Positions 2 to 1,422 of a stretch of DNA of 64,000 bases are shown here, in pieces. The stretch is taken from positions 2,225-66,224 of the forward strand of contig SVHF01000002.1 of NCBI GenBank assembly GCA_015055975.1, given 5' to 3'. The position numbers were made by a program, and so were the translations under genes. The DNA is from Clostridiales bacterium (lineage in GTDB: Bacteria > Bacillota > Clostridia > Christensenellales > UBA3700). Below the pieces are notes generated by a model. The model was not told the DNA's origin. It made no database searches and saw nothing but the letters and a program-made list of their open reading frames with translations. Positions within the stretch are counted from its first letter, which is position 1, and every line of letters starts with the position of its first letter.

Positions 2-532
2 ACTTTGCTTGTAGATTTTTTAAATAATAAGCAATACGATAAAGCTTTAAATTATCTTCAAGAGCATGGTGCCATTATAGATAGCATGACAATTAAGCAA
101 TACTGTAAAAACTATACAGTTAACTGTTTGCTTTCTTCGTATATTCAAAGAGCAGAAAAGGCTGGCATTAAGGTAGAGTGCCATGCGGATATTCCAGATG
201 AACTAAACATTGATGATTTAAAACTTGCGTCACTTTATGCAAACCTAATTGAAAACGCTATAGAAGCATGTGAAAGAATAAAGGATGAAACAATAACAAA
301 GTTCATTAATGTGCAAACTGCATTTGAGAATGGAACCCTAAGAATATTAATAGAAAATTCTGCAAACAATGATGTTAAATTTGATGGACCATTCCCAATT
401 TCCCAAAAGGCAAATCCAAGTGGTATTGGTACAAAGAATATTTATGAACTTGCACAACAATATAATGGACTTTGCGATTATTCTTTAGCAAACGGAATAT
501 TTACAGCAAGATTAATTTTGGTGGTTAAATAG
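2..532 (+). CDS. Sensor histidine kinase, C-terminal GHKL ATPase portion (5' end outside window)
   Basis: The frame is open to the window edge. LYANLIENAIEA (N-box-like) and PSGIGTKNIYELA (G-box-like) match the HATPase_c_5 domain of AgrC/ComD/LytS-type kinases. The stop TAG (530-532) overlaps the GTG of the next gene. Confidence 0.7.
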   Translation, partial: TLLVDFLNNKQYDKALNYLQEHGAIIDSMTIKQYCKNYTVNCLLSSYIQRAEKAGIKVECHADIPDELNIDDLKLASLYANLIENAIEACERIKDETITKFINVQTAFENGTLRILIENSANNDVKFDGPFPISQKANPSGIGTKNIYELAQQYNGLCDYSLANGIFTARLILVVK

Positions 533-1422
533 TGGATTCAAATAACACATTAAGGATATGTAAAAGTTATAAAGAACGTTTTGATAAACTTACAACGCTT
601 ATGGAATATCCTGAATTTAATGTGGATTATAACTTTTCAAAAAAGTATTTAAAAGAATTATCTGATATAAAGCCAATAGTAGATTTATACAATACGTATT
701 TAGAATTTTCAGATGAAAAAGATAGAGATTTAATAATTCAAGATATAAATAAAGAACTTTTAAAGGGAAGACATGATGAATACGATGGTATAGTCATTGA
801 GGTTTACTCTAAAGATAAGGAAGCAGCAAACTTTGTACTTTCTTCATATTTCAATTATTTTAAATCTAATGAATATAATGTGGATTTACAAAAAGACAAA
901 TTGATTGTATTTGGAGCATCGATATATTCTTTGTATAAAGTTGAGATGGGAACCCATATCTATTTGAATCATAAAGAAGCACAAGTGCAGGTATTAGTAT
1001 TGCCTTATAAAGATGTAAACGACTATACAGTATCTCTAAGGGATTTAAAGGTCGATTATTTCCACTCATCTGGCGCAGGCGGACAAAATATTAATAAAGT
1101 AGAAACGGCCGTTAGAATGACGCATAAAGAGACGGGAATAGTTGTTCAGTGCCAAGATGAAAGATCTCAATTGCAAAACAAGCAACGAGCATTAGAACTT
1201 ATTTCTAAAAAAGTTCAAGATTATTATGCTAAAAAGATAAATGATGATATCTCAAAAATTAGAAAAGATAAAAAATTATTGCAAGCTACAGTAAGAGTGT
1301 ATGATTTAACTAAAAATGAGCTATTTGAAACGCGCACGCAAAAGAAATATAATATTAGTGACGTGTTTATGGATAAACTTAGCGAAATAGATAGTGAGAT
1401 TTTAGTTAATGGAATTAAATAG
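532..1422 (+). CDS. Class-I peptide chain release factor paralogue with GGQ retained and decoding loop degenerate
   Basis: [39 protein letters not shown] (GGQ at nt 1078-1086) is a classic RF-1 domain. The N-terminus ([15 protein letters not shown]) aligns with the RF1 PCRF domain. No PxT or SPF motif is present. GTG start at 532 (taGTG coupling); the alternative in-frame ATG is at 601. Confidence 0.8.
   Translation: [296 protein letters not shown]

Follow-up and report, generated by a model that had tools for sequence, protein, structure and literature searches.

A 2019 survey of bacterial hydrolases of the release factor (RF) type comprised RF1, RF2, ArfB, and PrfH, with ArfB reported as absent from Firmicutes (PMC6514570), and in a 2026 paper PrfH was still the sole non-canonical rescue factor of the full RF type (PMC12829566). 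PrfH recognizes an abnormal state of the ribosome and is encoded together with RtcB (PMC6514570, PMC9304027, PMC12829566). Here, we describe an RF-like protein, hereafter RFL, encoded near the beginning of a 64,000-nucleotide (nt) stretch of contig SVHF01000002.1 from the Clostridiales bacterium assembly GCA_015055975.1 (hereafter, the window), where its gene is followed by those for a superfamily 1 (SF1) helicase, a coiled-coil protein, and two membrane proteins (hereafter, the module; Table 1). A full-text literature search returned no account of an RF paralog linked to a helicase, nor of the RFL family. What is new here is a clade of RFLs beside RF1 together with the mostly adjacent module; a preceding annotation made from the letters of the window alone (hereafter, the sequence-only reading) had singled out the RF paralog and missed both the module and the LytTR genes at the head of the operon.

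RFL has the same four-domain order and fold as RF1 (prfA) and a near-identical GGQ domain, and RF1 is the closest known factor by profile, pairwise score, and tree. However, RFL is devoid of the PxT/His hairpin and the alpha5 motif, has a shortened switch loop, scores about 300 bits under the prfA cut-offs, evolves fast, and is encoded in an operon with helicase and membrane protein genes rather than in a prfA-prmC-type context. Like PrfH with its RtcB, RFL is a GGQ-containing RF paralog that appears to read no stop codon and is encoded with a candidate partner enzyme acting on nucleic acid. In contrast to RFL, PrfH has no domain 1, is reported to be closer to RF2, and spreads by horizontal transfer, whereas RFL appears to have domain 1, is closer to RF1, is paired with an SF1 helicase, with no RtcB in any of the RFL neighborhoods examined, and resides in a locus that is syntenic within its clade. 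ArfB (YaeJ), ICT1, and mtRF-R (C12orf65) are codon-independent peptidyl-tRNA hydrolases built on a GGQ domain, an activity that is predicted for RFL as well; however, these proteins consist of a bare GGQ domain with a basic C-terminal tail, whereas RFL retains domains 2 and 4, apparently also domain 1, and lacks such a tail. Thus, the distinction from ArfB and PrfH that the sequence-only reading had drawn holds, both by these features and by the scores against the respective models (46.7 bits against a cut-off of 100, and 69.6 against 166.65).

The RFL open reading frame (ORF) starts with a GTG codon that shares 1 nt with the TAG stop codon of the upstream kinase gene, with GGTGG located 7 nt 5' of the start. 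This upstream start is the real one because orthologs conserve residues ahead of the alternative ATG codon (M24), for example, R16. The ORF is intact in every one of the about 38 orthologous clusters sampled and therefore is not a chance frame. The RF-1 profile of Pfam (PF00472), which the sequence-only reading had proposed to search with, matches RFL above the gathering threshold (E=1.1e-27, 96.7 bits, cut-off 35). The PCRF profile (PF03462) scores 19.2 bits against a cut-off of 24, and more distant members of the family have a precomputed PCRF match. Apart from PF00472, RFL remains below the curated models for the known factors, with 114.9 bits against 423.25 (TIGR00019) and 122.1 against 400 (NF001859) for prfA, 110.5 against 370 for prfB (TIGR00020), and the lower scores given above for PrfH (TIGR03072) and ArfB (NF006718), the latter match being confined to residues 164–197. 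The AlphaFold2 (AF2) model, also suggested in that reading, has the RF domain order with a three-helix N-domain (predicted local distance difference test score, pLDDT, 85.6; predicted template modeling score, pTM, 0.77), and the structures that Foldseek ranks first for it are those of mtRF1, RF2, and RF1 on the ribosome (E about 1e-16), with PrfH much weaker. The ORF is present as described, and the model and its matches confirm the RF fold of the product. The names given by NCBI to RFL and the module proteins are limited to “hypothetical protein,” “AAA family ATPase,” “DEAD/DEAH box helicase,” and “peptide chain release factor-like protein.”

As judged from the alignments, RFL has lost three elements that couple release to the stop codon: the hairpin with PxT and His, the tip of alpha5, and a switch loop of full length. 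The truncated hairpin IYLNHKEAQ, which the sequence-only reading had located at about nt 952–987, was found at nt 958–984, and a 9-residue gap falls exactly over “vpvtesqgrv/ih” both in MAFFT alignments with canonical RF1s and in an alignment of the family profile with solved RF1 structures. The gap covers the PxT motif as well as the decoding His, in agreement with the claim that about nine residues, including PxT and the His/Thr of GRxHTS, are missing. The family profile matches solved RF1 structures best (1zbt, E=2e-67; 2fvo, 1.6e-63), followed by RF2 (5.5e-59) and PrfH (1.9e-28). A scan of the full protein for SPF and P-x-T found neither motif, consistent with the reported absence of SPF. 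The alpha5 tip of RF1 reads U1 of the stop codon, as seen in RF1/RF2-ribosome structures; the replacement of this block by SKDKEA was borne out by the alignments, in which the RF1 motif at this position is GTGGEEA (named as GAAGGDEA in the sequence-only reading). Beyond these elements, the C-terminus of RFL aligns with domain 4 of RF1 (IRTYNFPQNRITDHR), as had been noted, and domain 1 is about 30 residues shorter than in RF1 and retains the L-x-x-P-E-x-x-x-D motif.

The hairpin (shorter by 7–12 residues), the alpha5 motif, and the full switch loop are missing in 22 of the 22 family members examined. The residues left at the former decoding sites vary freely in sequence and length among RFL orthologs, which is incompatible with RFL being a housekeeping decoder, whereas all canonical RF1s in our alignments share one and the same recognition loop, which, to our knowledge, is near-invariant across bacteria. 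Three relatives contain P-x-T strings (PVT in P0048, PQT in P0051, and PLT in P0068), none of which aligns with the PxT of RF1: those of P0048 and P0051 lie at or past the VLP proline, downstream of the loop, and that of P0068 lies about 30 residues upstream, so that all three appear to be chance occurrences. In locus L024, from a higher-GC lineage, a module-linked RF-like protein of 346 amino acids (aa; positions 3138–4178) has a near full-length hairpin (GLHRATGLEGGKRSALALVTTVSYVP) and an EDGGDAA alpha5 tip without PxT or His/Thr, and looks like an intermediate between RF1 and the trimmed form.

The catalytic center is kept. The GGQ tripeptide occupies residues 183–185 at nt 1078–1086, where the sequence-only reading had placed it within a near-canonical GGQ domain. 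Together with about 20 neighboring residues, among them flanking ones that contact rRNA and tRNA, it is invariant across the family down to 28% overall identity, with G181, G183, G184, Q185, N188, R195, C207, E210, R211, S212, Q213, and N216 among the invariant positions. In canonical RFs, the residues around GGQ position the catalytic Gln in the peptidyl-transferase center (PTC). Within the family, identity is 55% for domain 3 compared with 27–30% for domains 1, 2, and 4 (simple calculations for which only this contrast among RFL domains is reliable, the RF1-RF1 comparator set being closely related), indicating selection on the catalytic, PTC-binding part and not on a codon-reading surface.

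A search of 5.8 billion proteins yielded the about 38 RFL clusters, with 42–100% identity and lengths of 280–297 aa, beyond which lie more distant groups of 305–346 aa and then canonical RF1s at about 30%. This homolog search, also proposed in the sequence-only reading, showed that the deletion is common to the family members examined and that the neighboring genes are mostly conserved. Every RFL tested scores higher against Clostridia RF1 than against Clostridia RF2, and RFLs form one clade beside RF1 in a neighbor-joining tree, which is crude and affected by long branches. By these comparisons, the RFL family is a small, monophyletic, RF1-derived clade found only in uncultured Clostridia, in line with the assignment of RFL to the RF1 type of RF paralogs. 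All carriers are uncultured Clostridia from gut and rumen.

The window represents low-GC (33.6%) ordinary chromosome of an uncultured Clostridia bacterium, with feoAB and genes for a TetR regulator, a ZIP transporter, an RNase E/G-family protein, NAD synthase, and sugar metabolism. We compared it with related loci (denoted L001 onward, L001 being the full contig of the window). The genes are arranged, co-oriented and abutting or overlapping, in the order LytTR regulator (outside the window), AgrC-type kinase, RFL, SF1 helicase, 237-aa coiled-coil protein, 607-aa membrane protein, and 73-aa membrane protein, from which we infer that, in the clade of the window, the regulator, the kinase, and the module are co-transcribed. 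The kinase gene is cut by the window start; elsewhere, the full-length kinase has 435–436 aa with about six transmembrane (TM) segments and is preceded by a LytTR response regulator, and the full operon with this two-component system was found in L001–L004 and L011–L013.

Table 1. Features of the 64-kb window, with RFL and its neighbors first and other genes below
Feature	Position	Strand	Basis
3' part of GHKL (AgrC/LytS-type) sensor histidine kinase gene, cut by window start	5..532	+	Pfam HATPase_c_5 E=6e-16; weak NCBIfam AgrC/DcuS
RFL, 296-aa RF1-derived paralog, domains 1–4, intact GGQ	532..1422	+	profiles, alignments, AF2
SKDKEA (residues 93–98), in place of alpha5-tip GTGGEEA; 2 residues shorter; unconserved in family	808..825	+	alignments
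IYLNHKEAQ (residues 143–151), truncated hairpin where RF1 has RVQRVPxTExxGRxHTS	958..984	+	alignments
GGQ catalytic tripeptide (residues 183–185), within invariant block	1078..1086	+	invariant columns, Pfam RF-1
Shortened switch loop (residues about 244–258); 3 residues shorter than RF1; without SGDRSxKIRTYNFPQ	1261..1305	+	alignments
805-aa SF1 UvrD-like helicase/ATPase; overlaps RFL stop by 14 nt	1409..3826	+	Pfam UvrD-helicase/AAA_19, AF2, Foldseek
All-helical coiled-coil protein, 237 aa, basic C-terminal end RGVKIKK	3816..4529	+	sequence, family comparison
607-aa single-pass membrane protein, TM about 155–189	4529..6352	+	TM scan, alignments, Pfam
73-aa hydrophobic protein, two predicted TM helices, last module gene	6354..6575	+	TM scan, synteny
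CotH kinase-like protein	18270..19934		
AAA_14/DUF4143 ATPase	20176..21519		
tRNA-Ser(CGA)	21601–21690	−	
772-aa Listeria-Bacteroides-repeat surface protein	21730..24048	−	
Stand-alone condensation-domain protein	24618..25910		
Sel1-repeat protein	28107..29636		

The same gene order recurs at RFL identities of 55%, 46%, and 34%, with proS and luxS persisting upstream. The closer lineages (L001, L002/L003, L005/L006), with RFL identities as low as 46%, keep the arrangement luxS–two-component system–module–TetR–feoAB, and proS–luxS–two-component system–module is kept down to 34% (L011–L013), with ABC-transporter genes replacing TetR–feoAB downstream. In lineages without the two-component system, the order RFL–helicase–coiled-coil protein–membrane protein–small protein persists with gpsA/relA, aroC, oxaloacetate decarboxylase, and pyruvate formate-lyase flanks. 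Altogether, RFL adjoins the module in most of the lineages sampled, usually in the same orientation or with overlap, and does so in at least six flank contexts (luxS/two-component system, gpsA, aroC, oxaloacetate decarboxylase, pyruvate formate-lyase, and fumarase, the last in convergent arrangement); one lineage has RFL and the four-gene module in convergent orientation. The module is chromosomally encoded, syntenic within the clade of the window, and restricted to uncultured Clostridia; no integrases or transposases were found near the module loci in the neighborhoods examined, where the flanks are housekeeping genes. Additionally, in L011/L012, which belong to the lineage with 34% identity, a gene combining Schlafen/AlbA_2 and HATPase_c_4 domains (5951–7339), a putative regulator or defense-type gene, is inserted between proS and luxS, a short way 5' of the operon, an insertion not present in the other lineages.

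The helicase consists of an N-terminal beta domain (residues 1–150), an SF1 core, and a C-terminal helical-repeat domain (628–805; AF2 pLDDT 83.5), and its ATPase motifs, Walker A GVAGSGKTN and DEVQD, are invariant in the family. Foldseek places UvrD, PcrA, and Rep first, with Upf1, Ighmbp2, Sen1, and HelD at similar E-values. By its modeled fold, this is a generic SF1 enzyme from which the substrate cannot be read. Comparison with HelD, the SF1 ATPase that recycles RNA polymerase, yielded no NCBIfam match, a PDB sequence match to Walker A only, and a Foldseek rank below UvrD/PcrA with poor TM-scores of 0.27–0.33. In the P0033 lineage, the 5' two-thirds of the helicase are uncalled in two assemblies (L005, 3476–4627; L006, 1592–2722), where only a C-terminal ORF of 297–307 aa is found, and the N-terminal part is intact in a third contig (L007); the shortened form could stem from misassembly or, in some strains, from a frameshift or pseudogenization.

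No member of the module is better conserved or more constant in length than the coiled-coil protein (45–83% identity, always 237–241 aa), whose profile has 105 matches in 1.84 billion representative proteins, about 25 of them full length. A profile search of the PDB retrieved only designed helical bundles and chemoreceptor coiled coils, a composition effect that gives no function, and the Pfam and NCBIfam matches to WXG100, EzrA, Fib_alpha, and SMC are all below cut-off. The 607-aa membrane protein combines a conserved cytosolic N-domain, with an invariant GRFPLLSLCYLY, and a fast-evolving extracellular beta-helix with GLUG-like GGI..N.G.I repeats, which is its most variable part. Separately, in L016/L017 the RFL gene overlaps by 4 nt a gene for a 546-aa Beta_helix/GLAA-B protein, which is unrelated, by BLAST, to the beta-helix protein of the module. 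Between the syntenic lineages L003 and L011, identity amounts to 80% for ProS, 84% for LuxS, 61% for the helicase, and 64% for the coiled-coil protein, and to 37% for RFL, 34% for the membrane protein, 38% for the kinase, and 46% for the regulator. Thus, while synteny is kept between lineages, change is rapid in RFL and in the parts that are exposed at the surface or take part in sensing.

Upstream of the LytTR regulator gene, outside the window, L001 contains a perfect sigma-70 promoter (TTGACA-18-TATAAT, 12 of 12 positions), and immediately 5' of it, at 708–772, are two direct repeats, TTGGCAATAGA and TTGGCAATTGA, 21 bp apart. Their consensus is TTGGCAAT(A/T)GA, the 21-bp spacing is the usual geometry of LytTR sites, and L002 has a comparable repeat with the same spacing. 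The repeat pair looks like an autoregulatory LytTR site and, by these features, the operon in the clade of the window is probably autoregulated and inducible. Within the window, a promoter-like TTGAAA-17-TATAAT (11 of 12 positions) is located at 1325–1353, in the 3' end of RFL and 56 nt 5' of the helicase start; matches of this type are no commoner than expected in the AT-rich DNA of the window, so that it may mean nothing. No Rfam family was found within the window.

We propose, with the case evenly balanced, that RFL, in concert with the helicase module, acts on stalled ribosomes as a peptidyl-tRNA hydrolase that needs no stop codon. RFL would hydrolyze peptidyl-tRNA whatever the codon in the A site, freeing the nascent chain from the 70S ribosome or from a 50S–peptidyl-tRNA complex, and because it cannot sense that codon, its partners probably set its access to ribosomes. 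The SF1 ATPase would probably engage or remodel the stalled complex by pulling mRNA or splitting the subunits, the coiled-coil protein would, with the cytosolic domain of the membrane protein, tether or gate the RFL–helicase pair at the membrane, and in the clade of the window the two-component system would make the response inducible. The loss of contacts with the decoding center of the 30S subunit would also fit action on split 50S–peptidyl-tRNA, by analogy with mtRF-R in mitochondria, which works with its partner MTRES1 on split large subunits; mtRF-R with MTRES1 is a possible analog of RFL with its partners. Splitting driven by a helicase or another ATPase is an established step in bacterial ribosome rescue, as exemplified by HrpA and MutS2 (PMC11633108). 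More tentatively, and in our view rather unlikely in its entirety, the five genes could encode a membrane-tethered ribosome quality-control machine in which the helicase extracts mRNA or splits the ribosome, after which RFL releases the chain; the targeted ribosome would then possibly be one engaged in secretion or membrane insertion.

Several of our observations sit uneasily with such a rescue function. The link between RFL and the module is strong and not absolute: L025 carries the four-gene module (7001–12977), yet neither its upstream 7 kb nor the rest of the 16.4-kb locus contains an RFL gene. Conversely, RFL occurs without the module in L016/L017 (8001–8942). The fold of the helicase is nearest to the DNA helicases UvrD, PcrA, and Rep, and the sequences give no sign of action on RNA or the ribosome. 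A rescue pathway would not obviously need membrane proteins. Furthermore, the fast evolution of RFL and the membrane protein, as seen in the identities above, also fits a role in conflict or defense as opposed to that of an institutional rescue factor.

Among described pairs, parallels to a full-length RF acting with partners are ArfA-RF2 and BrfA-RF2, in which the RF is rendered codon-independent by a partner that replaces the stop codon and triggers opening (PMC6881298, PMC5378476). There, however, canonical RF2 is combined with a small tail protein that probes the empty mRNA channel, whereas RFL is dedicated and stripped of the decoding elements, and its candidate partners, the helicase and the coiled-coil protein, are large. 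Eukaryotes, too, use RF-fold proteins together with ATP-driven motors for the quality control of translation, namely, eRF1/eRF3 with Upf1 (SURF) and Vms1/ANKZF1 with Cdc48. Of these motors, Upf1 belongs to the SF1 helicases; Cdc48 is no helicase but an AAA+ ATPase. The RF-like hydrolase Vms1 has lost codon recognition and acts at a membrane (PMC6514570, for Vms1/VLRF-1). The eRF1-type fold is nevertheless unrelated to that of bacterial RFs; the analogy, one of components alone, is tentative.

We searched for relationships of the module to defense systems and mobile elements. PADLOC-DB v2 gave no specific match: RFL, the beta-helix protein, and the kinase fragment had no match at all (the 73-aa protein being outside the scan), the matches of the helicase were weak, partial, and of the generic GajB/UvrD kind (best E=2.5e-9), and those of the coiled-coil protein were weak and of the composition type (LmuB, ZorA, and JetC). 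The module was therefore rejected as a known anti-phage defense system. It was likewise rejected as phage or plasmid cargo because a search of 50,697 phage and 72,556 plasmid records yielded no match for the coiled-coil protein, and such collections gave for RFL canonical or phage RFs alone, none of them above 33% identity; the PHROGs matches are to generic RF and helicase families.

All three stop codons are in use in the window, as the sequence-only reading had stated, with TAA terminating 31, TAG 10, and TGA 7 of the 48 ORFs of at least 150 aa, which rules out an alternative genetic code in favor of code 11. No canonical RF gene was found by tblastn with an RF1 query in the window or the 25 related loci. 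With an RFL query over L001–L026, tblastn detected canonical prfA only in L026, an unrelated Monoglobus locus; the called genes of L027 include no RF domain; and the 10 kb past the last large ORF of the window (60882..62810) contain sugar-metabolism genes, argG/argH, and an HU gene, with no prfA. In L026 (1–4555), from Monoglobus pectinilyticus (Clostridia), prfB (with a +1 frameshift site at codon 26) and prfA come right after secA, and in L008, from an RFL-carrying lineage, secA (10323–11709) lies three genes downstream of the module; canonical RF genes may therefore be located farther along the L008 contig.

These results bear on other explanations of the locus. The main one, which we consider improbable although deserving serious attention, is regulated shut-off of translation by an abortive-infection or stress effector, in which the beta-helix protein or the LytTR system would sense an envelope, phage, or quorum signal and a codon-blind RF would be unleashed to release nascent chains prematurely across the cell and arrest growth. 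An unrestrained codon-blind RF would be intrinsically toxic, the operon is under predicted inducible LytTR control, and UvrD-like helicases recur in defense systems, with weak GajB matches for the one described here. Moreover, evolution is far faster in RFL, in the sensor-like membrane protein, and in the kinase and regulator than in the housekeeping neighbors, and the part of the membrane protein that varies most is its extracellular domain. However, neither RFL nor the beta-helix protein has a PADLOC match and the coiled-coil protein has only the weak composition-type ones, the locus is syntenic in the clade of the window between housekeeping genes without a defense island, integrases, or transposases nearby, neither the coiled-coil protein nor an RFL was detected in the phage and plasmid collections, and the helicase and coiled-coil proteins are well conserved (42–83% identity), all of which is at odds with this explanation.

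The fast evolution of domains 1, 2, and 4 and the existence of RFL genes unlinked from the module would also suit a decaying or non-catalytic relic, a scaffold that docks the helicase complex to ribosomes, or an enzyme acting on a non-ribosomal ester. We consider this very unlikely given that the ORF is intact in every cluster sampled and that the family-wide invariance of GGQ and the about 20 residues around it, down to 28% overall identity, concerns the very residues by which canonical RFs place their catalytic Gln in the PTC. Least plausible of all, and almost certainly incorrect, is the notion that RFL is the housekeeping RF1 of its clade with an unusually diverged decoding surface, which would accord with the derivation of the family from RF1 and with the failure to find a canonical RF in the window, the 25 related loci, or two further loci. 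Against it stand the shortening of the codon-reading hairpin by 7–12 residues, with a remainder that differs between orthologs, unlike the identical loops of canonical RF1s; scores of 115–122 bits where the prfA cut-offs are 400–423; an identity of 37% where ProS keeps 80%; lineages that have the helicase module without an adjacent RFL; and the normal use of both TAG and TAA.

Farther into the window, a cluster of unusual genes extends over 15515–29636 and includes a 491-aa protein with a weak Vps62-like match; other members are listed in Table 1.

To conclude, RFL, a presumptive peptidyl-tRNA hydrolase that has kept its catalytic center and lost its codon reader, constitutes a natural experiment on what, besides a stop codon, licenses the entry of a GGQ domain into the PTC. 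If the five genes indeed encode a membrane-tethered machine, RFL would represent a fifth class of bacterial GGQ factors, after RF1, RF2, PrfH, and ArfB, and the system would be a bacterial counterpart, by convergence, of the Upf1–eRF1 and Cdc48–Vms1 pairs. The conserved pairing of RFL with an SF1 helicase and membrane proteins points to an undescribed pathway of ribosome rescue or translation shut-off in Clostridia that are abundant, though uncultured, in the gut and rumen.

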